DNA from: Nemertoderma westbladi
Lineage: Eukaryota > Animalia > Xenacoelomorpha
Assembly: GCA_032718475.1 (NCBI GenBank)
Contig: JAUCBJ010006424.1
Location: 1-34,831 of the forward strand
Direction of reading: 5' to 3'
DNA: 34,831 nucleotides
The notes beneath the pieces are model-generated. The model made no database searches, was not told where the DNA came from, and saw only the letters and a program-made list of their open reading frames with translations. Below are positions 399-34,767 of the stretch, in pieces; position 1 is the stretch's first letter, and every line of letters begins with the position of its first letter. Both the position numbers and the translations under genes were made by a program.

Positions 399-555
399 CA
401 TTTAGACGAGACGAATTCAGCTGAGATGAGCACTTCGATAAACGTGGGGGCTCTGAGTTCGGACAGCTCGGATCTCGAGCTGTTGCCTGGATACCGGCCA
501 TTCATAGAGGACCGTCTGGGGTTGACTCCACAGCGACAAACTCCTGCGAGTAACG
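399..555 (+). CDS. PCM1: Internal coding exon of PCM1-like host gene (HLDETNSAEMSTSINVGALSSDSSDLE...PASN)
   Basis: Acceptor ttttcAG at 397-398, 157-nt open frame, perfect donor G|GTAAGT at 556 (phase 1). This phase matches the acceptor at 32701. SAEMSTSINVGALSSDSSD resembles the vertebrate PCM1 segment SVAESTSLNIDVQSEASD (recalled from memory). Confidence 0.7.
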
Positions 556-574
556 GTAAGTTACCTGGGTAACG

Positions 575-1621
575 CGGCAGCTCCAAACCAAAACCCAGTA
601 AGTACATTTTTTGACTTTTTGAGATAATCGCAGAAATAATTTTGGACTTTAAACAGCTAGTATTTGGTTGAAATTTAATTTGATGAGTTATAATTTTGTG
701 TACCTTTACAAATTGTACATATATTAGTGCCAAAACTTTTTTTTTAATTTATTCCTTACTTTTCATATAAATCGACTTACACGGTTTTGGTCTGGTAGAA
801 AAGAAAACAATTGTGATTTTTGATGCATCAATACCCAGTAACGTCATGATTGTCATTTCAAAACACAGTAACTAATTTGCCCACACCAAAACCCAGTAAA
901 CTAACATATTTAACTTTTCCAATCAGTTACCTTTTCCTTTCCAAAACCCAGTAACTGACAAGTCCCTTAGCCAAAACCAACGGGGAGCGAAAACAAAGAG
1001 GCAACATTCTAGAATATAATATTCTAGAACATTTAATTATTTGTCTACGTCTGTTGCGTTGCCGGAGTTACTGGGTTTTGGTTTGGCATAGTATCTGCAT
1101 TCGGGAAATCCCACGTCAAAACCCAGTATCTCAGACTGCTGGAAACCCAGTAACTCTGTTTAACTGTGTTTTGACGTGGTAAATCTGACATTGACAATAT
1201 ACATACTGGGTTTTGACTTGGACAATTTGTCTTTCGGAAATGATACTCGATTTTGTTCAGAAAATACCAGGTGAAAACCCAAAAGAATTTTGCTCAAAAC
1301 CCAGTAGTGCAGTTACTGGGTTTTGGCGTGGAATTTTGGGATTTTTGAACACATATACTGGGTTTTGATGGAGTAACTTTTTCAAAATAACACCAGAAAG
1401 GATAAACGAAACCCAGTAACTAGCATTACTGTGTTTCGACGTGGTAGTTGCTTTAAATTAGCTAATTAGTTAATTAATTAATTGATAATACTGCGAAATC
1501 GGTTAGTGCTATGGTTTCGAAACTGAGTCTGATGAGTTCTACGCCCCCAAATTACCCAAAAAATCGAAAAAAATCGATTTCGAAAAAAATTGACATACTG
1601 CGTTTTGGTTTGAAGCTGCCG
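575..1621. mobile_element. Non-autonomous TIR DNA transposon with 4-bp TSD (AACG); superfamily unresolved
   Basis: Left end CGGCAGCTCCAAACCAAAACCCAGTA; the reverse complement of the right end is CGGCAGCTTCAAACCAAAACGCAGTA. AACG at 571-574 and 1622-1625. Many internal AAACCCAGTA motifs in both orientations. No transposase ORF. Confidence 0.88.
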
Positions 1622-2550
1622 AACGGGTCTCTTACCTGAATCTATGGGAAAATTTCTTGACGTTCTACCAAAAAAGGCGACAAATTCGCTAAATATTGAT
1701 CCCTATAGTCTCCCAATTACAGTTCAGTTTACCACTCCACTACGACAATGTTATCAAGAAATATGATACTGGTTTTATATAATATATTATACTGACTAAC
1801 AACACAACAGACAGAGTAAGAATGGCATGGAAATTTAAGGCACACATTTACCGCCCACCAATAAATCCTAACAAATAATATAAATACAAAACTGATATGT
1901 CGTACCTAAGCATATCCAAATACCGTATGAAAATGCAAAACTAAAGCTGCTTTTACTTAAAATTACATTAAAAAATAATCTACAGTACATTCTACATACA
2001 CACGTGTACACATTGTATAAATGGATATTCATATTGTAGTAACTCAAAATATTTTATTTTGTAACAAACTACATTGGGATGGAAGACTATGTTGTCAATG
2101 TCTTCCTTGGTTTTGGTTGAATAATTTTTTATACGCATTTATGTGTTTACAAATATTATTATTACAAAATATCTATGACATACTTAGTAAGAATTTTACT
2201 TTATGATAATTAATTAATGCAATTTATGAGGTATACATATACATACACTTGTATGGTTGGGATTTGGTTCTGGTTGCAGTGTGCGGTGTGGTGCATAAAA
2301 AAACATTCAGAATATTATATTTTATTTTCTTTTTAATTACCCATATCACAGGTAACGGATCAATTCTGTCATATGAAACATTTCAAAAATGAGTGATGAT
2401 ATTATACTAATAGTCACCATTCATATGTGGCAGTAACTTATTGTAAATAGGCGGTGGGTTTCTACTGAAATACAAAAGTTTCTACAAAAACAATGCTTGC
2501 TTGTGTAGTACATTCCTACTACAGGGTTGTGTTCCAGTATTTAGATAATA

Positions 2551-2632
2551 AACACGGTAACCCATCGGTAACACATCGGTAACACATCGGTAACCCATCG
2601 GTAACACATCGGTAACACATCGGTAACACATC
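2551..2632. repeat. 11-bp minisatellite (AAC[A/C]CATCGGT), about 7 copies
   Basis: Direct tandem repeats read from the sequence. Confidence 0.92.
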
Positions 2633-3368
2633 TATTAACTTGTAGTCATTTGGTATATAGTTTATGTCTTACCAAATACTATCTCAGACAGACTGTTACA
2701 TGGATGCAAAATGGGAAAAATTTGTAAATTAGAGCGACGCCCAAGGACCAGTGCCAGCTCACTACGCTGGCTAGCCCCACAATAATGTCAATAAATGTCG
2801 ACACTTGTTGGCGACATATTGTTGGCAATTATGGTTAGATGTTCGTTCATTTAAAACTAACCTATAGGCATATTTAATCTAACTATGAAGGCAACGTTGA
2901 TAAAATAACCACATCCACTACTGCACAGTGCACACACAGAATATTAATTCAAGTGTAGAAAATAAGGGCCCCATATTATGTGTTGTTTCACTTGTAGTGA
3001 GTATAGGGGTTGTTGGGTGGTAGTCTTCGAAGCTACAATTTAAGTACACTGAGACACAATGAATTGGCAAATTAAACAATCACCACAAAAATTATTCGCG
3101 TTTACGCTCTTACATACAACCAAAATATTGTTATTGTTTTATCTTGGCTGTTATTTACGAAGAAATGAAAAATATTAATTAAATTTCTTGCTGTGGTAAA
3201 CTCATACCGCAACTACAATATGATTTTTGGCGGGTGTATAATTCGTGCCAAGTATACATTTGCGATATGAATGAATTGATAATGATGTATTTAACAATTT
3301 AGGTACTCTTTAAATTAATTATTATCACTGTTGTTACCATAGTAAAGTGTAATTCCCTACTGTACTAG

Positions 3369-5726
3369 CTAGATATCAATAAGATTGGTTGAACCGAGGT
3401 CGTCTGCCCGGCTTGATAACCCTAGGAAGTATTCTCGATCGAGTCCAGTTTTCGATATCACGTTCCCTCCACTGCTACCCGTTGTCAGTATGTCCTGGTG
3501 AAAGTTTTTGGCTAGGTTTTCTCTTACATTCGGATTGATATCTTCGCTGTTATCGAAGAGATCTTCGTTGGCCAACCATTCGTGCGAGAGTGTCTCCAAC
3601 GCTGTGTACCTGTTAGCTACATCCCTGTCCAACATGTGCTCAATGACATCAGTGGCTGCGTTTGATACTTTGTTGAAGTATTCCTTCGGGTAAACTATCT
3701 CGTCATATACTATTTTATGAAAGAGATCTTGTAGATCGCTAGATTCGCTTTGGAAAGGCGGTAATCCACACAGGAGAATGTAGGCGATAACTCCAGCACT
3801 CCACACATCGATCTTTAGACCATAACCCGTCTCCGTTAGCACTTCAGGAGCCACATAGGTAGGGCTACCACAAACTGTGTAAATCGGTCTATCAACTTTC
3901 ATTGCCAAGCTAAAATCCCCAAGTTTCAGGGCTTTCGATCCATCTTGAAAGCAGCAAACTAAAAGATTTTCTGGTTTGACATCTCTGTGGACAATATTCA
4001 TCTCATGGAGGTAACAGAGGGCACTGCACAAGTTGTATATCATACTGCTCGCATCTCTTTCGGTATAGACCATGTTCAATTGGATTGCCTCAAATAGATT
4101 TCCACTATTAACTAACTCCATGACCATGTACATTTCATTTTGGCCATCCCATTCTTCCACAAGTAGAACAATATTGGGATGCCGAATATTTTTGAGAATT
4201 GTAATTTCACTCAACATCAGCAAATCGTCGTTGCATTTCGCTTTATCAATTATTTTCATTGCGAACTCATTCCCTGTTTCTCTCTCCACACACCGGTTAA
4301 CAACAGCAATCTTACCTTCACCTATCTTTTCGCAAATTTCATATTTATCAAGCATAATGTTATCTATTTCGGGAAGACTTCCATCGCCACCACCAGTTGG
4401 TTCTTCTTCCGCTGCGGGTAAAGGCGGTATTTCTGGCGGATTTTCCGGGGCGAGATTTATGTGAACCACGGCGTGAACATTGAGTTTTAGCGAACTTACA
4501 AACTGCTCGTTTTCGTCTGCCATTGGTTTGTCCAGAAGTGGTTGGTGGTTATATGGAGCCATTTCCATTAAATTGTCAACAGAGCGACCATGGTCTGTTG
4601 TGTCGCCCATAACATTTGCGTTGGGATCGTTGTTGATCTGACTTAGATCGGGTGTGCTTTTGAAGTCGCCTTTAACTCCGTGGCTGTGGTAGCATCTGTG
4701 CGGCACAATATGGCCCTCCCAGTTGAGCCCACCTGGGTACCGTCGGGTGCTGGACGACCGCATCGCTTTCCTGCCGCTCCGAGGAACTGGTGTTCCTGTG
4801 AACGGCTCCACCGAACTTTCCGTAACACGTTGACGCAACTGTTCCAGATGTTGGGATTCACTGGCGTCCAGTTTGAAATCTTCTTTTCCATGTTTTTCGC
4901 TACCAAAGGCGAAGAAAGCGTCTTCGGCGCTGTAGAAGTCTTGGAGACTGACGACCGGCTGACCCGTTGTCGTGTAAACCCGACGCACCTGACCAGAGGT
5001 GAGTTTCAGCACATCCGTCATGTCGTCTACGACGTGCTCGAAACTAGGCGCCGTGCGTTTGTTCAGCAGCATCCGTACCATCCGTCTGGGTCTCCGGCCG
5101 CCTCGGATCACCGTGATTAACTTGGGCCAGACCTCGTGGTGGTAGTGTATCTCCGTCTCACAACCGTTGCATGCCATTGAACTCGCGCTCTTCCGCATGC
5201 CGTTAGACTCCACGCTGCTCCCGCTCTTCCTCACTTGTTGCGCACGTCCTTGCGATGGGACCAATGAGATCTCTCCATTCGGCGTCGTATTGCCAATGTA
5301 ATCCATTTTCTTAAAGGGCTCGTTAGATGTAACAACATAGACCCCTCTATCTTCCAGCTCGTCCACATTCAGTATAGGAACCCCGTCGATGGTGTAGACC
5401 CGTCTGGCCCCCGCAGGTAGCCGACCTTCAGCTGAAAGCGTTCTAGTCAGGTCACTCAATAGGTTCTCGAAACTGCGACATCTCATGTTCGATATGGCCA
5501 TCGGCACTCCCTTGTGGTAGCGGTCCCCATTCGGAAAGAATGTGACTCGTTTAGCGCGGTGTAAGGTGTCTGTATACAGACGCGAATTGGTGCTATACAC
5601 AGTCGACGTCACAGTGCTTGTGCGATATGATTGGTTATTATTCCTGGGACTCCCGCCTCCATTGAGGCGGCTTTTATGTTCGCTGTTAGTTCTCGGTGAT
5701 CGTTTCTTGTCAACTACAACGGGCAT
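3369..5726 (-). CDS. DCLK: Doublecortin-like serine/threonine kinase, paralogue A (785 aa, intronless CDS, divergent kinase motifs)
   Basis: Two DCX domains (AKRVTFFPNGDRYHKG; PKLITVIRGGRRPRRMVRMLLNKRTAPSFE) plus a CaMK-type kinase domain (FAMKIIDK, HRDVKPEN, DFS, YVAPE, DVWSAGVI). Confidence 0.95.
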   Translation of the reverse strand: MPVVVDKKRSPRTNSEHKSRLNGGGSPRNNNQSYRTSTVTSTVYSTNSRLYTDTLHRAKRVTFFPNGDRYHKGVPMAISNMRCRSFENLLSDLTRTLSAEGRLPAGARRVYTIDGVPILNVDELEDRGVYVVTSNEPFKKMDYIGNTTPNGEISLVPSQGRAQQVRKSGSSVESNGMRKSASSMACNGCETEIHYHHEVWPKLITVIRGGRRPRRMVRMLLNKRTAPSFEHVVDDMTDVLKLTSGQVRRVYTTTGQPVVSLQDFYSAEDAFFAFGSEKHGKEDFKLDASESQHLEQLRQRVTESSVEPFTGTPVPRSGRKAMRSSSTRRYPGGLNWEGHIVPHRCYHSHGVKGDFKSTPDLSQINNDPNANVMGDTTDHGRSVDNLMEMAPYNHQPLLDKPMADENEQFVSSLKLNVHAVVHINLAPENPPEIPPLPAAEEEPTGGGDGSLPEIDNIMLDKYEICEKIGEGKIAVVNRCVERETGNEFAMKIIDKAKCNDDLLMLSEITILKNIRHPNIVLLVEEWDGQNEMYMVMELVNSGNLFEAIQLNMVYTERDASSMIYNLCSALCYLHEMNIVHRDVKPENLLVCCFQDGSKALKLGDFSLAMKVDRPIYTVCGSPTYVAPEVLTETGYGLKIDVWSAGVIAYILLCGLPPFQSESSDLQDLFHKIVYDEIVYPKEYFNKVSNAATDVIEHMLDRDVANRYTALETLSHEWLANEDLFDNSEDINPNVRENLAKNFHQDILTTGSSGGNVISKTGLDREYFLGLSSRADDLGSTNLIDI

Positions 5727-6747: not shown

Positions 6748-7159
6748 TACATATTGACCCCTTAGAACCGCGACCAGCCATGTCTACATATTGACCCCTT
6801 AGAACCGCGACCAGCCATGTCTACATATTGACCCCTTAGAACCGTGACCAGCCATGTCTACATATTGACCCCTTAGAACCGTGACCAGCCATGTCTACAT
6901 ATTGACCCCTTAGAACCGCGACCAGCCATGTCTACATATTGACCCCTTAGAACCGTGACCAGCCATGTCTACATATTGACCCCTTAGAACCGTGACCAGC
7001 CATGTCTACATATTGACCCCTTAGAACCGTGACCAGCCATGTCTACATATTGACCCCTTAGAACCGCGACCAGCCATGTCTACATATTGACCCCTTAGAA
7101 CCGTGACCAGCCATGTCTACATATTGACCCCTTAGAACCGTGACCAGCCATGTCTACAT
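6748..7159. repeat. 37-bp tandem array, 11 copies (TACATATTGACCCCTTAGAACCG[C/T]GACCAGCCATGTC)
   Basis: GACCCC starts at 6756 and recurs every 37 bp to 7126; only one C/T position varies. Confidence 0.97.
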
Positions 7160-7660
7160 TTTTGTCAAAATTGAGTTATTGGTATCGTTGGAATGCTGAA
7201 CAAAAGTACTATCCATGAAAAAGGTCTCAAGTCCATATCTATGCATTCAACTTGCAGATCTGGCAAGTCGGTAATAACCTAATATCCATGTCCAAACCAT
7301 GAATTTCGGATAAATGAGCCATGTCTGTCCAATGCTTTTACAATAATGAGCCATGTCCATGTACGTGGCTCATTTTGTCACTTTTATTTTACAAATATTT
7401 GGGATTTCAATTATGTAAAAATGACCAATGTCCAAAAAATTTGGTAATAGTTTTGGAAAGTTGGCTAGTTTTCAAAATTTGCAATACATATTCCAAACTT
7501 TTTGATATCACACCGTTTAGTAGTGGTTGGGCAATGAATTTCCATTGAAATAACTTTGTTATAATGATGTGTCGATTTATACGGCCACTTCAAAAACTTT
7601 AAACGTATTTTTCTCGGAATTACAAAATGTGGACATGGCTGGTTATGATTCTAAGTGGTC
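7126..7660. mobile_element. Non-autonomous TIR element whose left end has been tandemly amplified
   Basis: Left GACCCCTTAGAACCGTGACCAGCCATGTCTACATTTTTGT. The right end (7622-7660) reverse-complements to GACCACTTAGAATCATAACCAGCCATGTCCACATTTTGT. Internal CCATGTC motifs. No clear TSD. Confidence 0.8.
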
Positions 7661-9319: not shown

Positions 9320-10265
9320 AATAGTTATTACATAATATTGCAATTCGAACAATTTTGCTGCTCGCGGCATTCGCATATCTCTACTTATAGCAGAATACAG
9401 TAAAAGCATACATGCTTTAATTAAATAGACAAAGATTTTGTTGCAAAAATTATTGATTAAATATAATTATATTCTTCTAAAAAATGGGTAACTCATCGCA
9501 CATCACATTTCCTTTGGCGCCACATTAGAATCTGATTTGAGTGCAGATACTGTAAGCTGTGCACGATATAATAGGCCTACACCTATTCAGTCATCTTGGT
9601 ATGTATTACATATCATTGCCTTTGGGTGCATGTAAAGAGCGGACTGCGGACTGGCGGACTACGGACTGGGGATTGCCAAAATCCGCGCGGTCAATTTGAA
9701 TTATCGACTTCCAAACTAAGAATCCGCTCTTTGTTGTCTGGACAAATGGCGGACTGAAGCCGGTAAATTGTAACCTGATTGGCTCAATCATGTACATAGG
9801 CTGAAGCTGAAAGGGAACTTAAAGAATGAATCATTCCATTTGGCTTTTAAATGTTTACCATTGTGCAACACTGTAATACAGGAAATAATTATCCTATACA
9901 GTAATTACGTGGACTGTTGATTAAGGGCCTACTATATTACCAATCAATATTATATATATATATATATTAGACCATTACACAAATTAAAATTACAAATACA
10001 AATACCCACCTACTATATAATCAACATTCTACGGATTTTCAGATTATTTATTTCAATAAATATTTTTATATACTTCCTGCCTTTAGAGTTTATGTCACAG
10101 TTGTCTGTTCGCAAATATAAAAGAGCGAATATTCGGACATTCGGACATCGGATTTTTTTGACAGCCTTAAAATGAAAAACACGAACACCTGATCGGCTAG
10201 TGCTTTTTTTAATGCTTTTTTAGTGTGGGCTGTGATATCCTACATATCTGACATACGATTAACTG

Positions 10266-10542
10266 GGCCCATGTGAAGTATACCAGACTTTCCGCCGTTA
10301 TATTTCACTTTGCAGTTACCCCCATGTGAAGAATACCAGGTTTTCACCAAAAACACAGGTTACAGAAGGGCTGAATCTAACCAAAACAATAAACGAATTA
10401 GTATATGTACAGGTTATAAGACAGAAATAAGCGCTATAAAACACTTAATAAAGATAAATTTAAAAAAATAAAAAATCTTCATATATAAAATTCCAATAAA
10501 AAGTCGACCGAAAAGTGAAATCCTGGTATTCTTCACATGGGC
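10266..10542. mobile_element. MITE nested in the MULE, 9-bp TSD GATTAACTG
   Basis: GCCCATGTGAAGTATACCAG ... CTGGTATTCTTCACATGGGC inverted ends; GATTAACTG at 10257-10265 and 10543-10551. A third TIR copy is near 10321. Confidence 0.82.
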
Positions 10543-10550
10543 GATTAACT

Positions 10551-10670
10551 GTGGGGCGAGCAACGTAAGTCCAGGTGAGCCTTAGCATATGGGTATAAGC
10601 ATATGGGTGGACCCGTCTGTCGTTGTCATCGTCGGAAATGTTTGAACGCTAATAAGTCGGTCAATCTTGG
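10551..10670 (+). mobile_element. Truncated end of Helentron/DINE-1-like element
   Basis: GTGGGGCGAGC...GAGCCTTAGC followed by a short GTC-type microsatellite, the same layout as the element end at 22416-22275 on the minus strand. Confidence 0.6.
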
Positions 10671-10872
10671 AAAAATAATGTTTCACTACTAGTATGTACG
10701 ACTAATATGTTTCAATTATGTTCCAATTTTGTTTCAACTAACAGAGACATAATAGTGGCAGTACGAGCCAACCTCCCCCCACCCCCCCCCCCCCCCCCCC
10801 CCCTTTTTTTTGGACGACCCCAACGTAAAAACTTTTAATTTAAGTAACAAGCAAACAAGGAATATCTTATAA

Positions 10873-11001
10873 GGTCGCGGTTCACACCTTTAAGCAATAA
10901 GCATAACTCTGCTTCGGCAGCAGAAGTACATACTACAGTAGTCCCAAAGTCTTTATCTAAAGTAGAGTTACGAATGAATCATGCTTAAAAGTGAACCGGC
11001 C
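10873..11001. mobile_element. Small Tourist/Harbinger-like MITE
   Basis: GGTCGCGGTTCACACCTTTAAGCA ... TGCTTAAAAGTGAACCGGCC imperfect TIRs flanked by TAA and TTA. Confidence 0.5.
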
Positions 11002-11907
11002 TTAACCTGAGAGATTTTATTGAAAGTTCAAGAGTTCTTCCTACTGCCTACATAATAGGTTTTCAAAATAATAGGTTTCCATCTCTGTGTCACAATGAAA
11101 ACATTTAAGCCAATAAGAGGATTCAGGAAAGTTCCCTTTGGGCCTATGTAAATGATTGAGCCAATCAGGTTACAATTTTCTGGCTTCAGTCCGCCGTTTG
11201 TCCAGACAACAAAGAGCGGATTCTTACATTATAATGCTATAATTCAAATTGACCGCGCATATTTGGGCTTTTAATTGACAATCCGCAGTCCGTAGTCCGC
11301 AGTCCGCAGTCCGCCCTTTACATGCACCCCTTGCCTTTGGCAAACTATTATCTAATCATAAACCTAAACCAGGAATTTTTATGATTTTTATATTTCATCT
11401 CGAAATATATACTACTCTTTACTATTTAACAGTTAACACGATTATGTTAACGATACTAATAATTTATAAATATGGCAGTAGCAGTGTATCAGAAGGATGG
11501 AATAGAAACGAAATTTTTAAGAGTTGCACATTCATGTTCCTGACTTGTTGGGATAATGATACAATTTATTAACTTCCAATTCTAATGTGGCTCAGTGGAG
11601 GGAAATTCAAAGTTATTATTGACTATAAGTAAATTCAATAATATGACTGAATGTCTGCAGTCTGTGAACCAAGGCCTACGCGTCAACCTTATTACAGTAT
11701 TACTGTATTACCTGAATTAAATTCGATGTAATTTGAATAGTTGTTATCAACAATGGAGATATACAGATGTTTCTTTGGAATTGAAGAATTTTTAAAGAAA
11801 TTTCGCAGAACCCATAAATTGATAAAAAATTAACTTGTCGTGCGTGACACCGAAAGAGTGCCATAGTTTTGTTTCAACATTCCTCAACATTCAATAAACA
11901 ATAGAAT

Positions 11908-22152: not shown

Positions 22153-22274
22153 CCATTGCACTGATGGTGTCTGAAAGTCTCTCAAAAATCTCAACTTTTG
22201 CTCATATTGATACCTACAAATTTTCAACTTGGCAGCTTTAAATCCGACAAAGTTATTAGCATGTCAAAATCGTA

Positions 22275-23472: not shown

Positions 23473-23622
23473 AATTGCAAAATATCCTTTCATAAAATGA
23501 ATCTCCTCTGTAAATTTTGAGTATTTGGTTTTAAAATTGGCATTGACAATTGCAAAATATCCTTTCATAAAATGAATCTCCTCTGTAAATTTTGAGTATT
23601 TGGTTTTAAAATTGGCATTGAC
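23473..23622. repeat. Exact 75-bp tandem duplication
   Basis: CAATTGCAAAATATCC...GGCATTGA occurs twice in tandem. Confidence 0.93.
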
Positions 23623-24606
23623 TATCACTTTATAGAATCCTTTGAGGAATTTTTGAATTTCCTTTTCAAAATGATTTTATTGCACTTTTCGTAACACGAA
23701 GTCATAAAATTTCCATTTTTATAGACTACGCAGGGTTTAATCTTACTTTTCTCGAGGACGCGAAATTCAAAAATCCATCTAAGGATTCTGTTCAGGAGAG
23801 ACAGCGAGATTAACAAAATCGGACAAAGAATGTCGGATGAGAAAGATTCTAGTGACGAAAACTGAGGGAAACTGACAGGATCAAAGCGGGTAAAACATAA
23901 CGTGTTTTACTTTTCCGCTCAAAACTGTCTGTTAATATGTAAGAATGTTAGTAAATAATGTCTGTCAATAAGGATAGCTTAGGGGTTTGGGATATGAGTA
24001 GCAGAGCGCATCCTCTTAATGGATTATAATCCGCTTAAAGCATTGTTTTTCTTCCCTCTAAATTTTACTTCTTCTGACCCAAGATGATTTAGAAAACAGC
24101 GCTGTTATATCCCAGCCAGCCCAAAACCGTCGCGTTTACAAAATATTTTGACTATTGTGTGAACAACCATCGAAAATTTGATTCTACCAGCTTGCCTGCA
24201 CCCCGTATCTGAGAGTTGCTTCTAATAATATAAATAGTGTTCTAGAATATTTTATATTATTTATATTCAACGTTTGTACATTCATTGTAGGGTAGGTAGG
24301 TATGTAAGTAAGTCATAATCCCATAGGCCTTGTTAGATTGTGTTAATCTATTGTACGGTTACGAAATACGGAAAGTTGTTTATTTCATGAGAAATATGAA
24401 ATGCTACAAATCTAGAGTATATTAACCCTAACATATATTAACCGAAATACAAATAAAATAATAAGTAAACGCAGCGTTTAACTTTGGATTCTTGTCTGCA
24501 GTACGAGGTAACATTTGGTGAAACTTTGTGTAGTTTGTGGGCAATTTGCAATTTGGTGAACAACTCAGGCTGCCAATCAAATTACTTAAAAAATTGACCG
24601 TTCAAC

Positions 24607-25130
24607 TTATTCGGCACACGAATTATTCGGCACAAAATTTGCCCACATGTATTTCCAATTAGCACCACTGCGTTATCTGTACTCACTACCTAGGTTTTTT
24701 CCTCCTATATGCATTCAAACTAGCTATCTTTTCATGTTTTTTTTGTAAAATTTTCTACACCATGTTGGCTATTGATAAAATAAATTTAAAAATGCTCTAG
24801 AAAATATTTTTGTATACAGGAGTTATTTTTAATGTAAAAATATAATTTTACATTCGAAGTTTTTTTTTTTAATATTAGCTAGCATGAAAAGAATGGCACT
24901 ACTATGGTTAAAATGGATGTTTTTGTAGAAGCTAGTTTTGCTACTTTTTTTTTACTTACAAATAATTTCTAATAAATTTATTTTTTTAAATGTTCTAGAA
25001 CAAAAAATATTTGTTCTAGACCATTTTTTTACAAAATTATAGAGAACGTTTAAAAAAATGTAGCAAAAACTAGCTTCTATAAAAAAATCCGGTCATGGGT
25101 ACACATAGCTGTAGTAGTGCCGAAAATAAT
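24607..25130. mobile_element. Degenerate AT-rich foldback/TIR element
   Basis: TTATTCGGCAC (24608, 24623) is inverted relative to GTGCCGAAAATAAT (25117). Inner arms are GGCACTACTA/TAGTAGTGCC and TAGAAGCTAGTTTTGCTAC/GTAGCAAAAACTAGCTTCTA. Boundaries are uncertain. Confidence 0.5.
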
Positions 25131-25640
25131 TAATAGCTGATAAATAAGAATACCCACTCGCCAGTACAAAACAAATACCCCCCCAGTACAACACCAAGAC
25201 GTGGTGTTGAATAGGTTAATATTGGATGAAACTTTACTGGGAGAGCTGTTAGGCGGACAAATTTATTTACACCATTTGTTATTTAAATAAAAGTTGATTT
25301 TATTTCATTATTACTTTGACTCTAGATTTGTGATTTTTTATATTAATACGTTCTGAATTTGATTAAGAATTGCTGAAAAATGTTTGGCATATGTTGCATT
25401 TGGACGTTGGCACTGTTACACCCCGGGTCTAAACGTTATGGAAAGACAGTAAATCCTCACTTGATAATATAAAGAATGCATTGATAACATTTTATACCGT
25501 CAAGCATAGCATTTTTTTCTCAACACAACTTAAAATTCATAAGAAATTGTATTTTATGGGCGATCTTATTTAATTTGGGTGATATAATTTCCCCTACTAA
25601 AACGATTTGTAGATGTTATTGGCTTATTAGAGCAAAGAAT

Positions 25641-26849
25641 ATGGCGAATAAAGAAGAATCTGTAAATACAGAAGAGCCAGTCGCCACTACTAAAGATTCT
25701 ACTGAGAATGGAGAAGGGACGCCACGGACTAACTCACAACAATCTATTGGATCAGAGAATCCAACTGCCAAAGAAGATGAAACACCAAGGGATACTCAAC
25801 CAGAGGGATCTTCTTTCAGAGTGACCTCCAAAGGAAAGACTAGCGCGCAAGACCTTGTTGAGGTATCGTCATCATCTTATGTTGTTCGTATTGTGAAGAC
25901 AAAAAAAATAAATACAAAAAAGGACAGTGTTGGAGACTTAGCAAGAAGGTCGCTGAAAAATCCCAAGGATCTCAAGACATTGGACAATGAAATAGTTAAG
26001 GAAGTCGTTGTAGGGATTGTACAAAATAAAAAAAATGAAATCGCTGGGCCACCTATTCTACGTGGCTCCTCTTCTGCATTGCCTAATAAGGCCATGTTGC
26101 ATAATGCAAGTGGTAGCGCTACATCTGTATCTGTTAAGAAAACACTCAGTGAAACAGATATAGTTAGTAATATGGTAATCACTGAAAGGGAAAAACAACA
26201 AATGATTAAACAGCTTGAGACAAACCGGAAAATTGAAATAGAGAGGAGAAAGAAGGAAGACGATAAACGCCAAATCAGCGACAAAATGCGCAAGTATTCA
26301 ATTGAAAGAAGGAGGACCTCTGATATTAGACGCCAAATGAAAGACATTGGATATCAAAAGAAGAACACTGACGCGCTGAAAGCGCAAGATAAAGAGCGTA
26401 TGCGCATAGGCTCTATTGGAAGAAGAAGGGCTTCTGATACCAGACGTGCTGAGATGGATATTGTGGAGGATACTGAAGACCATAGGCGACGCATATCCGA
26501 CAATGAAAGAGCCAAGAATGATGAAAAATATAAAAAAAAGGTAGCTCAATTACAGAAAGCTACCACATCTTCTAAAATGTCAAATGCCGCCAAGACCAAT
26601 TCTGTAACTCAGCACAAACCCGAACGTAGTAATGAGCCTACTAGTACAGAGTTACTTGTAAAACGACAAGCTGATATTAACGCATTACATGTGAGGAATA
26701 AAGCATATCGATACGGTATACCGACAACAAAGTCAAAGGCAAATCATAATGACGCGATGTTAAAACGTCTAGAGAATCGGGGATCTTGGCAACCAGACCT
26801 AGTTGAAGCACAAAAGGGTAAACCCAAGAAACAGTCAAAACCAAATTGA
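25641..26849 (+). CDS. Uncharacterised highly charged, likely disordered/coiled-coil protein (~402 aa from first ATG)
   Basis: 1.2-kb open frame in AT-rich DNA with purine-rich, coding-like composition. First ATG is at 25641 (the ORF track starts at a TTG). No recognisable domain. Confidence 0.75.
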   Translation: MANKEESVNTEEPVATTKDSTENGEGTPRTNSQQSIGSENPTAKEDETPRDTQPEGSSFRVTSKGKTSAQDLVEVSSSSYVVRIVKTKKINTKKDSVGDLARRSLKNPKDLKTLDNEIVKEVVVGIVQNKKNEIAGPPILRGSSSALPNKAMLHNASGSATSVSVKKTLSETDIVSNMVITEREKQQMIKQLETNRKIEIERRKKEDDKRQISDKMRKYSIERRRTSDIRRQMKDIGYQKKNTDALKAQDKERMRIGSIGRRRASDTRRAEMDIVEDTEDHRRRISDNERAKNDEKYKKKVAQLQKATTSSKMSNAAKTNSVTQHKPERSNEPTSTELLVKRQADINALHVRNKAYRYGIPTTKSKANHNDAMLKRLENRGSWQPDLVEAQKGKPKKQSKPN

Positions 26850-27320
26850 AACAATTTTTTTCAATTAACTCAGCTACTAACCATATTAGTTATTATAAAA
26901 CTTAGTCATAGTCATGGAAAATTCGATCCACGAAATTAATAGATTTTTGAGATTATAAGTCATATTTGGCATACATATACTAGTAATGTATACCTATATT
27001 TCATTATTGTCCATATAGTATTGGACCCAAATTAATTTATGACAATACATACATACATATGCCGGGGATTGGGGGGGGGGGGGGGGGGGGGGTGTTTCTC
27101 AAAACACATTGAAGGAATTAGGTGACTCAGGGGTAAATAGAAGCATGAGTGATAATTAGTTGATTTTAATTCAACGGTTAGGATTGATTTTTTAGAATGT
27201 TCATTTGGATTTAAAATCTATTATTTCACAAATCCCCCCCCCCCCCCCTCCCCCTCCCGCTCCACCACCATGTCCCAGCAGATTAAATTAATTTTTCACT
27301 TCAGTTGTTTTCTACCTTAA

Positions 27321-29364
27321 CTAAATTATAGTGGTGCGTCGCTCATTAAGGGGCAGATCCATTGCTACGACCTGAACTCGCAACACATCACTAAAATCCA
27401 CGCATTCATCCGAGTACATGCAGTTGTTAACAATCTCCTCCGGATCCCACAATCGCCCAGGGAGTTGGTCTATTTCAATACCCATGGCCGCGTCTAGCGT
27501 TTTATTCTCATCTGGCCTGGAATTCGCATACTTTTTCCGAGTGTATCGAACTTTGTTTTGTCCGCAACTCTCGTCTTTATCGTATATTATATCATTCGAT
27601 TTGTTGATTTTTCCTCGAAATGTCGTTGTTTTGATATTTGCGAAACCGGAATCCCTTTTAGAGTGCGCTGTCTGCGCATGCGCAGTCCTGCTATGGTGGA
27701 TAAATCGGTACTTGTGATGATAAATGGTCCCGCATGTTGCGCATTGCCTCGCTGGCATTCCACGACATTTCCTTTCTTTAATATGCCACAGATGTCGATA
27801 CGCTTTATCGAATGTGCGTCCGCACTTCCGACAATCGTAGTGTTTTATAGACCCTTTTGAGTTTACTTGATCTGTAGCTTTTCCGTTTTTTAAACTTTCC
27901 ATTTTTTTTCCGTCTGTGCTCCACCTCTGGACAGTATGCGTTTCGACAATGCTTGGGTTGACCCAATCAGTCTGCCCAAACATGTTAACGTTTGTTCCAG
28001 TTTCCCTAAGGTCTATTGGATGATCCCCGTAGTTCATATTGACATGCGAGTGTGTCTTCATGTGACGCTTTAAGTTCCAACTCTTACCGAAACTTTTATC
28101 GCATTTGTTGCAATGGAAATTTCGGGTAGTTGAGCTGACTGTAATGGGAACGTTGTTTTGTTTGGAGTTTGGGATCAACCCGAATCCCATCTGATTGTCA
28201 ATTTGGGGCGGATCATTAGTGCTTAGAGTTTTTACATCCTCTGATAAATAGTTGAACTCTTTAGACGGTGATAGATCGATTGGAGTCGATATTTGTTCGA
28301 AAGTTACAACTGGTTTCATCGGTGGTGGTGGTGTCTTCTGCTCCTCGCCATAGTCTGATCCATATATTTCGTCGCAGATGAAGGGATTGTTCACTTTGAT
28401 AGCTTCACTGTTCAGCCTATTGAGAAATAAGTTAATTCATTCAATGATATTCGGGTTCAACTCCCAGAAAACTATAGTACATGGGTGGGTGTGTAGCTAC
28501 TGCAGAGGATACCAAATCTCGGGATAGCACTTATACAATAGGTACGGTACGGCTACGCCGGGTTCATTTTGTCAAGTACAATGAACACTGAACACATCTC
28601 CAATCATAAATCATTAGTCTCACCAAGCTTGACACTTGAGCGGGGCCGCCTCCGCTTTGCAGGAGGCGGTTTGTTTGATGTACTAATGTTATGGGGTCCT
28701 ATAAGTTTTTAACATACGCATATTCTCACTCCCACACTGAGTAGAGTAAGACTGTAGTTGTCGACTTACTTGTTTTCCCCGCTTAGAGATTTAGATTTCC
28801 TCCGGCGGCCGCTTTTCTTGGTTTCTCTTTGCTTCATTGTGATGCCGCTCTCCAAAACTAATGTTAAGGGAAACGCAATAAAATGATAATTATTAGGGTA
28901 CACGTAACGTAAACGTACTCTTGGTTAAGGAAACATAAACGGGTACACGTAACGTAAACGTACTCTTGGTTAAGGAAACATAAACGGAACGTCTTTCTAT
29001 GTCTAGGTATTTATTCAAAATTTAAAAATAAAAATTAATATGACGATCTATAAAACATTCGCTAATATCTGCCACGCCACTTACCATCAGTGGATTTGGA
29101 ACTGTGTAATTTATCCATGTGCCTCTTGAGATGCTCCTCTTGTACGAATGTTTTGATGCAGAACATACAGTAGAACGGTCTGGATCCCGTGTGGATCCGT
29201 TCGTGGCGGTCTCTATTGGATCGTTGGGTAAACCCTTTGTTACACCAACTACACTTGTGGGGTCGCGTGCCATTGGGGGCTTTCGCTGGGATGTACGGCT
29301 CAGCAACACGTTTTGCCGTAGTAGTCGGGTCTGTGGTTTCTGTGTCAAACGAGTTTTGGTTCAT
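27321..29364 (-). CDS. C2H2 zinc-finger protein (~487 aa); coding exons 29364-29085, 28857-28770, 28416-27321
   Basis: Fingers CSWC...HERIH-TGSRPF-CMFC...HMDKLH, CNKC...HMKTH, CRKC...HIKERKC and CATC...HSRTAH. Both donors are GTAAGT and both acceptors are tAG, with phases 1 and 2 joining into one open frame. The middle exon has a basic NLS-like stretch KKSGRRRKSK. A 5' UTR intron is likely at 29583-29375. Confidence 0.85.
28896..28985. repeat. Exact 45-bp tandem duplication in zinc-finger gene intron
   Basis: GGGTACACGTAACGTAAACGTACTCTTGGTTAAGGAAACATAAAC at 28896 and 28941. Confidence 0.93.
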
Positions 29365-31086
29365 CTTTCGAAACCTGTGAATGTTATATAAAATAAATTA
29401 AAATGTAAAATTAAATTGTCTAACATTATGCATAAAATAATAATATTAGGAACACTAAAGTACCAATTAAATACTAAACCAAAACCGACAAGGTGGATTT
29501 TGTCATGTCATAAATAAGAAATACAAAAGACAGTCTATAAGGAATGGTAACCTCCAATTATTTAAACGCAATATATTACTCACCTGTGAACCACGAAGCT
29601 AACAACGATTGCCGGTAATTAAATAAGTTAAAATTATCTTATTTACGACAATTCTATACTAGAAATATGCAATTACCAGTAAATCTAAGAAGAATTATCT
29701 TCAGGTGGTGCCAGAATTACAGAATTACCAATCTTCACCCCTCGCGCACTTAACTAGTAACTAATAAATAAATGACTGTATATATCCTGTAGCCCGCGCA
29801 CTATATTACTCTCACATTGATGAGAATTGAAGATATTGGGTAGTAGTAGTAAATGATTAACATTGGCTCGCACTAGTATATTGAAGGAAGATGTTAACAT
29901 AAAGGTGTGTTGGCTTGTTACACAGAATATAAAGTACTTTGCCCTGATCTCACGCTGAGAGAGCATAGTCCATATCCTGGCAAAAGATCAAGTCTATCCC
30001 AACACTCTCCTTTGTAAGTGTAACGAGCCTTGTTCCAACCCAAACTGGGTGGCTAGAGATTGGAGCGACTTGTAATGGGTTGTTGGGGTTGCCCAAACAA
30101 AACAAACTAACTTGTTTGGTATCTGCAAGGGACATCCCATCAACAACATCTAATATAAACATGCTTATTATAAGGAAGTTTCTAAAACATGAATAATATT
30201 TTAAAAATCAATTATATTAATCGATTATTTAAGTCTGTATATTTGCTTTTCGCTTTTCTCGGCTCACCTTTAATACAACCTTCGTCACTCCATTACAGTG
30301 GAACGTTATTCTAACCAAAACAATAAACGAAGTCAATAGAACAGGTTGCAGTTTTATTTTTCGAGGTAATCAGCTGTTATTTTTGGGTTGAATTTCCTCT
30401 GGAGAGGGATGAATTTTGTTTGCGTCGAAAGTTCCCCCCCCCCCCCCCCCCCCCCCCCCATTTCTTGTTTTTGGGAATAAAGTTTATGACGAGTAGGAGG
30501 TATTTGACCAGAGGGTCTCCCCACTCGTTATAAATATTTATCATTTTGAGTATTATCTTACGCCACGAGCGACTTCGTTCCATTATATCACCTCGTCTGA
30601 TTATGGTAATAAGTTAAACTGTTCGACAATTAATTTTATTAAAATCATTTTTAATCAATTTTATTAAAGTATTTCCAAATATTATTAAATGTTACACTCT
30701 GTTATAACATTCTGACTAATGCTGCGCTATGAATGACGTCACGGCCGCTCATACCGGGATTATTATTAATTTGGGGCGAGCCATTAATTCTAGGTGAGCC
30801 GTTGCGTATCGGTATAATTAGTGGACAGTTATCAAAAGTTGCACACAAATAGTAGCACAAATTCTACACACAGACAGACTTATATAGTTCCTATGCCGGC
30901 CGCTAAGGGGCGTAATGAAAGAAACATAGAACACAATGGTCCACTAATTGTAATAACACTGAATACTGTTTCACCTGTTACACCATGCCATCGTAATAAA
31001 TGACATTAAACGTAACCCAAGCATGGCCTTTCGTCATAAACTTGTTTTGCTATAATAATTTGTTTATAACAATTTGTATTATTTCT

Positions 31087-32375
31087 TTATCGATACGTAA
31101 AATAGCCGGTTTCTTCATCCCTAGTAACTTGGTCCCATCGACCAATCACGCCGTTCATAGCAACGTAAACTCCTGATTGGTTGATGGTCTGAGCCGAGGC
31201 CACGGCCGCCCCTATATTAAAGTCGGCGTCGGATTCCTTAAAAGGCTCTGGTAGAAATGATCCTGTTAATACTATTACAGTATTCTTACACTCGGGCAAG
31301 TCTTTCATGTGAGTTGCCAGATACTTGGCCGTTTCTAACATTGTGTCGGTCCCATGGGTCACCACAATCTTCTCGTAGACAGCAATGGTAACCGCTCCCA
31401 TTAGTTTGTCTCTATCGTCGTCGTTAATGTCCTGACTATCCTTCCGGGATACCGTTATATACCCTATGGTATCGGGGGCGTGGCACCGGTTGAGTATACG
31501 TTTACCAGCACATTCGCTTATTTCGAAAGCATATCCTTGTCTGAAATATGTAAACATAGACTGGATTATAGATTGAATGAGGTGTGTTTGTTTATTCGCT
31601 TTGACGTCTAACACCATGGGCAGCAAACTTCGCCCGCGAGCAAACTTCGCCCGGAGCAATCTTCGCCCTCAAAATGAGCAACTAGCGCCCGGCGGAAACC
31701 TTCGCCCGCAGGCGATCTTCGCCCGCGAGCAACCGTCGCCCACTAAACAATTTTATTTTGGTTAGAAAAAACCGTCTCTGTAACCTGCTCCTTTCCCTTA
31801 ATTGGTAACAACATCGTTTATTGTTTTGGTTAGAAAAAGCCGTCTCTGTAACCTGCTCCTTTCCCTCAATTGGTACCTACAATGGTTACTAAAACAAATC
31901 GTATTGGGCGAAGGTTGCTCGCGGGCGAAGATTGCCTTGCGGGCGAAGCTTTCCCCGGGCGAAGGTTGGACGCGGGCTAAGATTGGACGCGGGCTATGGT
32001 TGTACGCGGGCGAAGGTCGCACCCAACCAACACCATGTCATCTTACTGTAACTAACTAGCGAATCCAGAGGTCGGAGGTTCTAACATAATTAGAGCTGTG
32101 ATATTTTTTGCTAATAAGTTAAAATCTTAATATAAAGGTGGATAAAAAAAATATATTGTTCGGTTCCATGATATATTTACCGTTACTTTTTTTATAATAA
32201 ATACTACGGAGGCCTACAGGAAATATCCCTACAAGTCCAGTGATGAAAATCTCAAAAACCAACATATATTCGTAAAGACTAAATATATGAAATTATTTTA
32301 CCTGATTTTCGGGTAACCCTTATCGATTGTTCCTCCTGTTTGAATTATCAAAATTTCTGATTTTGAAGTTTCCAT
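31087..32375 (-). CDS. Short single-domain L-asparaginase-family protein (175 aa); exons 32375-32302 and 31540-31087
   Basis: Exon 1 encodes METSKSEILIIQTGGTIDKGYPKI (TGGTI catalytic motif). It splices in phase 2 to exon 2, which has KDS, VVTHGTDTM, VLTGS, SDADFN and GVYVAMNG. The ORF track's N-terminus (31659) lies in intronic repeat sequence. Confidence 0.92.
31619..32028. mobile_element. MULE-like foldback MITE in the asparaginase intron, perfect 9-bp TSD AACACCATG
   Basis: Left arm of tandem CTTCGCCC motifs, right arm of GGGCGAAG motifs, GG...CC termini. AACACCATG at 31610-31618 and 32029-32037. Internal duplication of TTTTGGTTAGAAAA...AATTGGTA. Confidence 0.88.
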
Positions 32376-32701
32376 TTCAAAGTGTTTAGACGTCCACAGA
32401 ATAATAAACCCAACTTTATAACCAACAATTAACAATAACAATAGGTGCTGGGGATTTCGCCGTGCTAATTAAATTCCTACAGCTAATAGGCTACTGTAAT
32501 TACTCAACGTTGTGAACAATAATAAATCAACTGTAGAGTACAAGGCCGTACTTGTTTCCCTTTGCGAATTTAGACTTATTACGTGTTGTAATATTATAAC
32601 AATGGGGTACATTTTTTCGCAACTACGATTTCACCGTAGCCACTGCCCGTATAACGCTGGTCGCTGATTACAATGTTTAATTGTTGTTTTTTTACTTTCA
32701 G

Positions 32702-32978
32702 CCCGGAATAACAGACCGGATACAGTTCCCGGTCCCGTAGCGCCGCACACATCCACGGCTGAGAATTACGTCGCACCCAACGTAAAGCAGTTGGGCGCTG
32801 TTCCGGTCGGAGTCGGCACGGTTCCAGCCGGAGTCGGCGCGGAATCGTTGGGCGTTGGCACGACAACCGAGCAGCACGGAAGCACCACGCAGGATGAGAT
32901 ACAAGGCCTACAGAGACAGAAAGATATGCTCCTCAAACTACTTCAACAAAAGGAGCATCTAAAAATGTTACAGAACCA
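32702..32978 (+). CDS. PCM1: Coding exon of PCM1-like gene (coiled-coil region)
   Basis: Long polypyrimidine tract plus cAG at 32700-32701 (phase 1), open frame, donor GTAAGT at 32979 (phase 2). DEIQGLQRQKDMLLKLLQQKEHLKMLQ aligns by eye with recalled PCM1 EEIENLKKQHDLLKRMLQQQEQLRALQ. Confidence 0.8.
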
Positions 32979-33799
32979 GTAAGTCGCAGTGTCCAAAGTG
33001 ATGAAAGAATATACCTTGGTGTTTATACGCCTTACTGTGATGTGGATTTCTAATCTTACAGGAAATACAAAATAATTACTTTACAGATAACATACCACCA
33101 CAATGCAACCCGCCCAGCCTAGGGCTATTATAAATAGGTGATCACAGTAAATCGCGACCCACATGTATCTTGTAAGATTTACGCACGATCAGTAGATCGT
33201 AGATCTATGTGGACCTTGTAAAATCAGTATATTTCATCGAGGTATTAATTATTGTACTGTACCGAGTATTAGTATTGTACCGTGAACGGATTCCCTCTCG
33301 CACAATCAGCCGCCGCTAAAATCTGGTAATTATAAATTCACATGTGCAGAGTGTGTAATATCAAGCTCTCTCCCAAAATCATAGTTGGATATTAGCTAAC
33401 TTATTTTCACCACTTAAACTCTAAGGATTCTTTACTACAATAAATTGTACAATGAATGTTCGGGTGAGTTTAAGGGTTAAAATATTTTGAAAATCCCTCT
33501 CATGTTTGTCGCTTGACAAATAAGCGGTTAGTTGACCATTAATTATTATTGGTGTTATGGGTGAATGAGTGGTTTCATATGCCCAACATGCTGTGACCAA
33601 CAAAAAAGTTATTTTGGCCATTAATGGCTTTCTAAACATCTAATCCCGTTTCGAAGACCGTGGAAGTTACTAACTCAATTTAGTTGTAAGTTGATGCCAC
33701 GCCAAGCTAGTGGGCTCTTCAAAAAAGCTTCACGATTTGGATAATAAAGATTTGTGTACACAATTATATAATTTGCATTGTTTGTTTGTATCTCCACAG

Positions 33800-33935
33800 A
33801 CATTCTGCATTGCTTAATCAGCAGCAATTGGCCGAGCAGGAGTTGGGAAATTTACAAGACGAACAGGACGCCCTTAGAGGAGCAACTGGGGGAGAACCGA
33901 TGCCACAGGTTGGTATAGGGAGAACCGATACACAG
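33800..33935 (+). CDS. PCM1: Coding exon of PCM1-like gene; 3' boundary is either 33908 (GTTGGT) or 33935 (GTAGGT), both phase 0
   Basis: Acceptor ctccacAG at 33798-33799, phase 2, matching the previous donor. QHSALLNQQQLAEQEL continues the alignment to recalled PCM1 RQAALLALQHKAEQAI. Confidence 0.75.
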
Positions 33936-34396
33936 GTAGGTACAGGGAAGAGTGGTACAGGGGAGAGCCGATGCCACAGGTTGGTACAGGGGAGAGCCGA
34001 TGCCACAGGTTGGTACAGGGAAGAGCCGGTGCCACAGGTTGGTACAGGGGAGAGCCGATGCCACAGGTTGGTACAGGGGAGAGCCGATGCCACAGGTTGG
34101 TACAGGGGAGAGCCGATGCCACAGGTTGGTACAGGGGAGAGCCGATGCCACAGGTTGGTACATGGGAGAGCCGGTGCCACAGGTTGCTACAGGGGAGAGC
34201 CGATGCCACAGGTTGGTACAGGGGAGAGCCAATGCCACAGGTTGGTACAGGGGATAGCCGGTGCCACAGCTTGGTACAGGGGATAGCCGGTGCCACAGCT
34301 TGGTACAGGGGATAGCCGATACCCCAGGTTGGTACAGGGGAGAGCCGGTACCACAGGTTGGTACAGGGAAGAGCCGGTGCCACAGGTTGGTACAGG
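33890..34396 (+). repeat. 29-bp minisatellite (GTTGGTACAGGGGAGAGCCGATGCCACAG), roughly 16-17 units, overlapping a PCM1-like exon end
   Basis: Direct tandem repeats; they generate the overlapping repetitive ORFs in all six frames. Confidence 0.95.
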
Positions 34397-34613
34397 ACGC
34401 CCATAGAGGGGGGGGGGGGGGGGGGGGGGGGATCTAATATGTCAAATCGCTCGATTTAGCTACTATATATGAGTTCATCGGACGGGAGATGCCACACTAC
34501 GGATGTGAGTTTTCCGGAATTATGTTTCCTGATTCACCAATGCCAGTCCACTATAAGAGCCATATTATTTCATCATCCTACCTCATTCACTCATTATTAA
34601 TCTTGTTGTTTAG

Positions 34614-34767
34614 ATCGGATCAGCAGACCCTATTGGATTCAAAACCCAAACGAATTTATCGCCGAACGAGGCTGAGTTAGGCGATCTTTGGGATAAACTA
34701 CAGTCCTTGGAGGAGAAAGAACGACGTATGGGGCAGTTGGTTCACCGACTGGGCACACTGACCCAAG
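34614..34767 (+). CDS. PCM1: Coding exon of PCM1-like gene; the gene continues beyond the window
   Basis: Acceptor tgtttAG at 34612-34613, 154-nt open frame in phase 0, donor G|GTAAAT at 34768. DLWDKLQSLEEKERRMGQLVHRLGTL resembles recalled PCM1 ELFSKMRVLQEKKQKMDKLLGELHTL. Confidence 0.75.

Follow-up and report, generated by a model that had tools for sequence, protein, structure and literature searches.

The window analysed here (34,831 nt of Nemertoderma westbladi DNA, contig JAUCBJ010006424.1) contains a 32,146-nt intron that holds six intact protein-coding genes, two of them on the strand of the host gene, one of these two being the housekeeping gene TANGO6. The host encodes a protein with predicted coiled coils, probably PCM1, and very likely skips positions 556-32701 by cis-splicing of this single, gene-holding intron.

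The gene-within-gene layout is already known, and the locus is a large example of it. The majority of nested genes on record are young, lie antisense and are tissue-restricted, features thought to spare their hosts transcriptional interference. With a mouse-essential gene on the host strand among five others, the locus offers a test case for how a polymerase transcribing the host gets past the 3' end of a nested gene that is active. Gene prediction that does not allow nesting would break the host into two, with consequences for annotation and synteny work.

Host exons and the 555-32702 junction

The following features belong to the host gene or lie close to the left end of its large intron:

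399-555, + strand: host exon A, 157 nt; phase 0 in, phase 1 out; AG acceptor, GTAAGT donor; covered by contigs of runs X4 and X5
556-32701, + strand: host intron, 32,146 nt; GT-AG, phase 1; acceptor AG at 32700-32701; skipped in both contigs whose match ends at 555
575-1621, no strand assigned: element of 1,047 nt; terminal inverted repeats identical at 24 of 26 positions; 4-nt target duplication
32702-32978, + strand: host exon B; phase 1 in, phase 2 out; matched exactly over 32701-32978 by contigs of X4 and X5, the match ending at the donor
33800-33935, + strand: predicted host exon C, from splice signals and frame; 3' end directly before a 29-nt tandem array
34614-34767, + strand: predicted host exon D, from splice signals and frame; heptad-rich

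Evidence for the junction comes from X4 and X5, public runs from two independent studies that are labelled 'DNA?' (no run examined is recorded as RNA). An X4 contig (554 nt, depth 29.8) aligns to 414-555 and then to 32701-32978, and an X5 contig (807 nt, depth 23.6) to 396-555 and then to 32701-32978, each with zero mismatched letters; record length and depth agree at the two ends of the join. In both runs the sequence past 555 is that of window positions 32702-32731 (30/30 letters). The transcript junction that the preliminary description had proposed as a check on its model is present in a run from each of the two studies. Exon A, which it had described as carrying a phase-1 donor, is bounded by the expected splice signals.

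We read X4 and X5 as RNA because their contigs are spliced, because the asparaginase intron described below has also been removed in X4 and because the host introns lack depth (zero in both runs over the host intron stretches 33124-33506 and 265-384). Some bins inside the large intron are likewise without depth in these runs. We rejected the idea that the 555-32702 join stems from a processed retrocopy in DNA, given the missing asparaginase intron in X4 and the lack of host-intron depth in both runs.

Exon A is an internal exon, since the X5 contig carries 158 further letters upstream of 396, the last part of which is absent from the window. At the other end, the X4 contig has 135 downstream letters without a place, a number that fits the length of predicted exon C; joining onto 33800 and onto 34614 is itself predicted from splice signals and frame. 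When the four exons (399-555, 32702-32978, 33800-33935 and 34614-34767) are joined, 241 codons are open with no stops, bearing out the earlier claim that the join at 555 is stop-free. The same description had held the neighbouring host introns to be under 1 kb, and those downstream are predicted at 821 and 678 nt, against 32,146 nt for the intron that holds the genes. It had also named 32701 as the next matching acceptor, which is true of usage rather than of position: a scan of the + strand found that 6 of 35 strong acceptor-like sites open at least 60 codons in phase 1 (four of these in the TANGO6 frame), but 32701 is the only site seen used, in both contigs that end at 555.

Comparison with reads and contigs took in stretches on either side of 701-22399, exon D excepted, and the contigs carry no strand, start or end information. 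Contigs of the DNA runs X1 (265-574) and X2 (283-574) run from exon A into the intron. The 1,047-nt element is missing from one contig in each of these runs, where position 574 is followed directly by sequence matching 1626-1655 (28/30 letters), and the left intron end is thereby anchored by DNA from exon A through to 1626-1655. The window is abundant in high-copy repeats and poly-G runs. Runs X1 and X3 show almost zero depth over 32358-33123, yet for 32650-33950 the fraction of words present in X1 is 0.94; depth being subject to a filter, we place no weight on this.

Six genes within the intron

The nested genes, in the order in which they lie, are as follows:

3369-5726, - strand: DCLK-A, predicted gene; single uninterrupted frame, 785 aa; two DCX domains and kinase (Pfam); ~40% identical to vertebrate DCLK2
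11908-14820, + strand (host strand): TANGO6, predicted gene; single uninterrupted frame, 970 aa; Pfam domains
18296-20506, - strand: DCLK-B, predicted gene; single uninterrupted frame, 736 aa; best matches hemichordate DCLKs (48-49%)
25641-26849, + strand (host strand): orphan ORF, 402 aa, charged and of low complexity; X4 and X5 contigs
27321-29756, - strand: C2H2 zinc-finger gene; predicted coding exons 29085-29364, 28770-28857 and 27321-28416 (487 aa); Pfam
31087-32482, - strand: short asparaginase, 175 aa, N-terminal domain only (PF00710); exons 32302-32482 (ATG at 32375) and 31087-31540, 761-nt intron

All six are found at the places and on the strands given in the preliminary description, and Pfam names five of them. 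Their coding regions fall within 3369-32375, wholly inside the host intron, of which ~33% is coding. Four of the six coding regions have no intron; the two genes that do (zinc finger and asparaginase) are both antisense to the host. Separate contigs were found for three of the six, namely the orphan, zinc-finger and asparaginase genes, in the stretch compared with the spliced runs.

The TANGO6 protein carries TANGO6_N, ARM_TANGO6 and RTP1_C1 domains in that order, with Pfam scores of 69.4, 122.3 and 90.7 bits against curated cut-offs of 27, 27 and 25.9. A word search for TANGO6 relatives nevertheless returned none among 7991 candidates, despite these clear domains. In both DCLK proteins a pair of DCX domains precedes a Ser/Thr kinase domain (Pfam), with matches to named DCLKs reaching 1e-190 for DCLK-B. 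At four-fold sites outside one tract the two genes agree at 28 of 102 positions, which is the chance level. Exact sequence look-up found none of four proteins, and a metagenome scan for a related locus found none in 45 stretches.

The orphan ORF matches no Pfam family, and its best Atlas score (0.79) is a lead only; one unspliced X4 contig spans 25204-26967 and X5 contigs span most of 25342-26926. X4 contigs also lie on 27274-28305 and 29180-29372 of the zinc-finger gene, which likely has a 5' UTR exon near 29584-29756, to judge from depth and a gap row. A two-exon model of this gene was rejected because of a frameshift, whereas the three-exon join is open. For the asparaginase, one X4 contig joins 32302-32482 to 31283-31540 and extends at its 5' end by 48 letters past 32482 that find no place; the coding sequence is therefore nested, but the first exon may lie outside the intron.

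Origin of the gene block

Working from the sequence of this one locus, we lean slightly towards growth of the block by successive insertions, several of them via RNA copies. This is favoured because four of the six coding regions lack introns although they sit in a densely interrupted host (four exons in 724 coding nt), and because DCLK-A and DCLK-B, which by their divergence are old duplicates, flank TANGO6. Intron-free coding regions could instead stem from intron loss in place. In flies, nested genes are as a rule young and quick to evolve (PMC5174743). The TANGO6 and DCLK families are neither, which counts against this reading.

A less probable, though still sizeable, alternative is that the six genes entered the intron together, through one translocation or a pair of inversions. 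Two of the nested genes do keep introns, the mixed orientations and normal spacing look like those of an ordinary gene neighbourhood, and an essential gene moves most easily together with its promoter. The scarcity of introns in the block relative to its host counts against joint entry, as does the pattern of strand and intron content, which matches that attributed to selection on single insertions in fly data (PMC3814207).

Identity of the host

The host gene is probably PCM1: exons A, B-C and D appear to resemble three successive parts of the N-terminal half of PCM1, in the right order. PCM1 has N-terminal coiled-coil segments and a conserved C-terminal PCM1 domain (a Pfam family), which in this gene would be encoded beyond the downstream end of the window. 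Exon D has aliphatic residues at seven of eight heptad core positions, a feature not specific to PCM1.

A real nesting in some coiled-coil gene other than PCM1 seems unlikely, though this reading has the database searches on its side. Pfam returned no family for any of the four host exons. With exon B, a word search among longer proteins found no PCM1 (none of 340 candidates at E <= 1, under a 2000-residue ceiling), phmmer gave no PCM1 and two matches only, both to a low-complexity Gly/Val/Pro stretch, and the Atlas gave no usable match. With exon D, a PDB search gave no PCM1 and two kinesin stalk matches (E 0.43 and 0.91). These searches were of low sensitivity, however, using fragments of 45-91 aa and the same word-search tool that missed a clear TANGO6, and the apparent likeness to successive parts of PCM1 weighs on the other side.

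Splicing across 32 kb

Positions 556-32701 are most likely removed by ordinary cis-splicing of one 32-kb intron: the exons lie in order on one strand, the intron is bounded by GT-AG, 241 codons are open and both spliced runs contain the junction. Each nested gene would likely have its own promoter. The host polymerase would traverse four antisense genes and run past the 3' ends of two genes on its own strand; to read through the poly(A) signals of these it would need premature cleavage to be suppressed, as is usual in long introns. The layout is likely tolerated because the two same-strand genes are intron-free in their coding regions and offer few competing splice sites, the intron-bearing genes lying on the opposite strand. 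A search of the host strand for recursive-splicing ratchet sites (AG/GT) found two strict sites with weak pyrimidine tracts (5/13 and 7/13), neither convincing, and a relaxed scan found two sites on the + strand against three on the - strand.

A bolder reading is improbable: a centrosome gene split by a neighbourhood of old genes that includes the animal's only TANGO6, and whose mRNA is made by trans-splicing, or else by a host polymerase that routinely reads through a same-strand housekeeping gene active in the same cells, contrary to the transcriptional-interference rule derived from flies.

We give very little weight to separate transcription of the two host halves followed by trans-splicing, with the six genes lying between two units and no read-through. 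Such an arrangement would relieve the host of reading through 32 kb with two same-strand 3' ends and four antisense genes in it; contigs built from short reads display the joined product only and cannot separate cis from trans, and the zero-depth bins of X4 and X5 inside the intron are expected for mature RNA under either view. The same strand, right order and canonical GT-AG pair are, however, what cis-splicing yields, and introns of ~32 kb are ordinary in animals. Nor do the intron ends offer a complementary stretch: between 556-3300 and 30000-32701 the best opposite-strand matches are 13-20 nt long (E 0.26-0.92), none convincing.

Just as remote is a real but shorter host intron, with part of the six-gene block placed there by repeat-driven misassembly. 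The repeats and poly-G runs of the window are of the kind that might favour it, and a glass-sponge genome paper names 'unreal introns' arising from misassembly (PMC10282587). No contig or read was seen to bridge the whole intron, 32483-32701 has no bridge among the matches listed, and the read comparison lies to either side of 701-22399. Against this, exon B directly follows exon A in RNA, and misassembly would thus have to make two wrong joins, one on each side of a foreign insert. On the left, DNA contigs anchor the flank as far as 1655; the right side is tied by the X4 contig of the asparaginase gene (31283-32482), which ends 219 nt short of the acceptor. Among the matches listed, the longest DNA contigs cover most of 22728-31652, repeat gaps excepted.

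Comparison with known nested genes

Among the matches listed, a literature search showed no published account of this arrangement, although supplementary tables of fly and ctenophore nested genes could hold larger single-intron blocks; in one listing, none of the 10 papers shown of 34 mentions TANGO6. The preliminary description had called a six-gene block in one intron unusual. Multi-gene introns and same-strand nesting are documented in several animals, and the claim is to that extent too strong; what stands out is that the genes are unrelated and old, that one of them is lethal when knocked out in mice and that coding density is 33%.

The closest parallel in Drosophila is the dunce intron, which contains five genes, Sgs4 and ng1-ng4 (PMC10835880), and complex fly nestings reach 13 genes per host gene, though not per intron (PMC5174743). 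As there, several protein-coding genes lie within the intron of an unrelated host. The ng genes, however, are short, intronless and glue-like, whereas the block described here comprises five unrelated families with products of 175-970 aa, including the conserved TANGO6 and DCLK. Nesting in flies often arises through RNA-mediated duplicates (Assis, PMC5174743).

In humans, an NF1 intron holds OMG, EVI2A and EVI2B, and MOB2 has 13 nested genes, some of them coding (PMC4394429). [quoted passage not shown] It differs from NF1, where the three genes are all antisense and the host spans 283 kb, in having six genes in 32 kb, two on the host strand, and ~33% coding sequence. Dense nesting, with parallel and conserved nested genes, is also seen in two marine animals with compact genomes, the ctenophore Hormiphora (2357 nested genes in 1654 hosts, many parallel; PMC8527503) and the glass sponge Aphrocallistes (2432 genes in nested position, a good many of them conserved; PMC10282587), but the passages on these species give at most four genes per host, as against six here.

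In flies, 72.5% of same-strand nested genes are single-exon compared with 37.4% of those on the opposite strand (Lee & Chang 2013, PMC3814207). The N. westbladi locus follows this rule, both same-strand genes being intron-free in their coding regions and both intron-bearing genes antisense. It departs from the fly pattern in the kind of gene involved: those of flies tend to evolve fast and to be testis-biased (PMC3814207), whereas TANGO6, which in the mouse has at least three exons, is embryonic lethal when knocked out in that animal (PMC10943085).

Splicing of the host gene

The host gene lies on the + strand and comprises the following exons within the window:

399-555, + strand, exon A
32702-32978, + strand, exon B
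33800-33935, + strand, predicted exon C
34614-34767, + strand, predicted exon D

In the sequence, exon A is bounded by an AG acceptor and a phase-1 donor, GTAAGT, and the start of exon B falls at 32702, behind a pyrimidine-rich AG. Joined by coordinates, exons A to D yield 241 codons with no stops and introns of 32,146, 821 and 678 nt. The preliminary description had taken 32701 to be the next matching acceptor by sequence. This is not literally so: between 600 and 32701 there are 35 acceptor-like + strand sites with at least 11 of 14 pyrimidines, six of which open at least 60 codons in phase 1 (four of them in the TANGO6 frame). With the acceptor at 32701 not unique by sequence, reads were needed to settle the junction.

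Six runs were listed for 32650-33950, none of which is recorded as RNA, and run contigs were placed on two stretches of the window, 22400-33880 and 265-700. Two runs labelled 'DNA?', X4 (study P3) and X5 (study P2), hold just a quarter or so of the words of 32650-33950, near the exon share. We infer that both are RNA because the 761-nt asparaginase intron is absent from an X4 transcript contig and neither run has depth in 265-384 or 33124-33506. Contigs of X4 (554 nt, depth 29.8) and X5 (807 nt, depth 23.6) match 32701-32978 exactly, whilst on 265-700 contigs of equal length and depth match 414-555 (X4) and 396-555 (X5). The record positions of these exon A pieces abut the exon B piece in each contig, the single letter common to both pieces being the G at 555 and 32701, and the loose end past 555 is in both runs identical to 32702-32731 (30 of 30 letters). 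In the DNA runs X1 and X2, contigs continue from exon A into the intron. The proposed splice from 555 to 32702 is thus seen in runs from two studies, confirming the observation as a whole and supporting its reading, the PCM1 name apart. The X5 contig has 158 extra letters upstream, whose displayed end keeps an open frame and does not occur in the window; exon A is therefore internal.

Cis-splicing of one long intron (556-32701) is the simplest reading. Neither strong recursive splice sites nor complementarity between the intron ends was found in the host intron. Poly(A)-type hexamers lie 3' of TANGO6 at 14909, 15228 and 15330, so host transcription through the intron would have to ignore them, presumably by way of the suppression of premature cleavage that is usual in long introns.

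Assembly of the interval

No contig spanning the whole host intron was found among those on 265-700 and 22400-33880. On the left, contigs of X1 and X2 follow the window up to 574 and then continue with sequence like 1626-1655 (28 of 30 letters). What lies between, 575-1621, is an element of 1,047 nt whose terminal inverted repeats agree at 24 of 26 letters and which has a 4-nt target duplication; it is polymorphic, with a precise empty site in one contig of each run. Without recourse to the window sequence, these empty-allele contigs connect exon A with the flank downstream. The element sits in the intron, 19 nt beyond the host donor. On the right, one X4 contig links 31283 to 32482, 219 nt short of the acceptor, and the longest of the DNA contigs listed (eight per run) match 22728-31652 for the most part, interrupted at repeats. 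Misassembly of the interval is very improbable: with exons A and B consecutive in RNA, it would require two false joins.

The nested genes

Six genes lie within the intron, in this order (domains from Pfam):

DCLK-A, - strand, DCX-DCX-kinase protein
TANGO6, + strand, three family domains above cut-off
DCLK-B, - strand, DCX-DCX-kinase protein
Orphan, + strand, 402-aa ORF, no Pfam family, best Atlas score 0.79
Zinc-finger gene, - strand, C2H2 fingers
Asparaginase, 31087-32482, - strand, N-terminal domain; 175 aa, two exons, short single-domain form

Coding sequence makes up ~33% of the intron (10,595 nt, a count that omits the 88-nt exon in the middle of the zinc-finger gene). That exon (28770-28857) is needed to keep the zinc-finger frame, giving a product of 487 aa. 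DCLK-A, TANGO6 and DCLK-B are predicted genes; the orphan is covered by an unspliced X4 contig (25204-26967), and X4 contigs also cover the zinc-finger gene and asparaginase. The coding regions of both genes on the host strand are free of introns and both intron-bearing genes are antisense, the same pattern of strand and introns as that described by Lee & Chang (single-exon share 72.5% for same-strand versus 37.4% for opposite-strand nested genes; PMC3814207).

The closest of the 120 matches listed for DCLK-B are from hemichordates (48-49% identity), no close relative of the animal itself being among them. DCLK-A and DCLK-B are 46% identical and, outside one tract, agree at 28 of 102 four-fold sites, which is chance level; they are old duplicates. 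In that kinase-core tract (3726-4085 and about 18645-19000) 30 of 43 sites agree, compared with those 28 of 102 outside it and with 7 of 31 for the remaining part of the kinase (Fisher p 3e-6, the tract having been picked after the data were seen). Gene conversion between the two genes, 15 kb apart, is a likely reading of this pattern.

In a comparison with bacterial and archaeal loci, the long asparaginase exon is 41-47% identical to four of them; a transfer from bacteria is conceivable. Its transcript starts at most 219 nt from the host acceptor, on the opposite strand. At the 5' end of its contig, 48 unplaced letters extend past an acceptor-like AG at 32483-32484. X4 depth across 32358-33123 is fully explained by two known contigs, and these letters may therefore represent a further, distant exon, possibly past exon B of the host, or else come from a trans-spliced leader.

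Other features of the window

6748-7159, tandem array, 37 nt, 11 copies, between nested genes
21373-22153, tandem array, about 147 nt, 5 copies, between nested genes
23472-23622, tandem array, 75 nt, between nested genes
28896-28987, tandem array, 45 nt, between nested genes
33953-34396, tandem array, 29 nt, 15.3 copies, directly after the predicted exon C donor
9675-11268, 16176-16652 and 31679-31968, inverted-repeat pairs resembling non-autonomous DNA elements

The 29-nt array occupies most of the 678-nt host intron and has a donor-like motif in every unit, so the 3' end of exon C may vary. Summed depth in the DNA runs is very high in the bin 31592-31974. One contig of X4, 345 nt long at depth 13.2 and with 10 differing letters and 5 gaps, falls on 22596-22915, near which no convincing ORF was found; it may stem from a non-coding transcript or a UTR exon, or be a repeat copy that belongs elsewhere. 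Short open frames on the - strand at 29950-30207 (85 aa) and 20820-21098 (92 aa) match no Pfam family above cut-off, and are possibly element fragments or UTR exons.

Identity of the host gene

The host is probably PCM1, as proposed in the preliminary description: three successive exon segments appear to resemble, in the correct order, the N-terminal half of PCM1. Exon D is heptad-rich. Searches for PCM1 relatives gave no PCM1 match with short queries (45-91 aa), one search being confined to at most 2000 residues; the word-search tool used also missed every TANGO6 relative.

Origin of the gene block

Nesting usually arises by RNA-mediated insertion (PMC5174743). Four of the six nested genes have intron-free coding regions, while 724 nt of the host are divided among four exons; Tango6 of the mouse has several exons (PMC10943085). 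Judged from such sequence features, stepwise accretion is somewhat favoured as the way in which the block was built. Arrival of all six genes in one block move is less likely, the contrast in intron content between nested genes and host telling against it. Synteny support was found for neither.

Comparison with known nested genes

Among the papers listed by the literature searches, none deals with this locus, and the relevant part of PMC3786989 gives general rates only. The preliminary description considered a six-gene block unusual; six in one intron does belong to the upper tail but still falls within the known range. The dunce intron holds Sgs4 and four ng genes (PMC10835880), fly hosts are described with up to 13 genes (PMC5174743), and a single NF1 intron contains three coding genes, MOB2 being host to 13 nested genes (PMC4394429). 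Among human hosts, 95% have four or fewer nested genes, the two orientations being broadly similar in frequency (PMC11694760), and more than 2300 nested genes are reported in each of a ctenophore (PMC8527503) and a glass-sponge genome (PMC10282587). What is less usual here than in the known cases is that the nested genes are long, unrelated and old, and that one on the host strand, TANGO6, is a gene whose knock-out is lethal to mouse embryos (PMC10943085).
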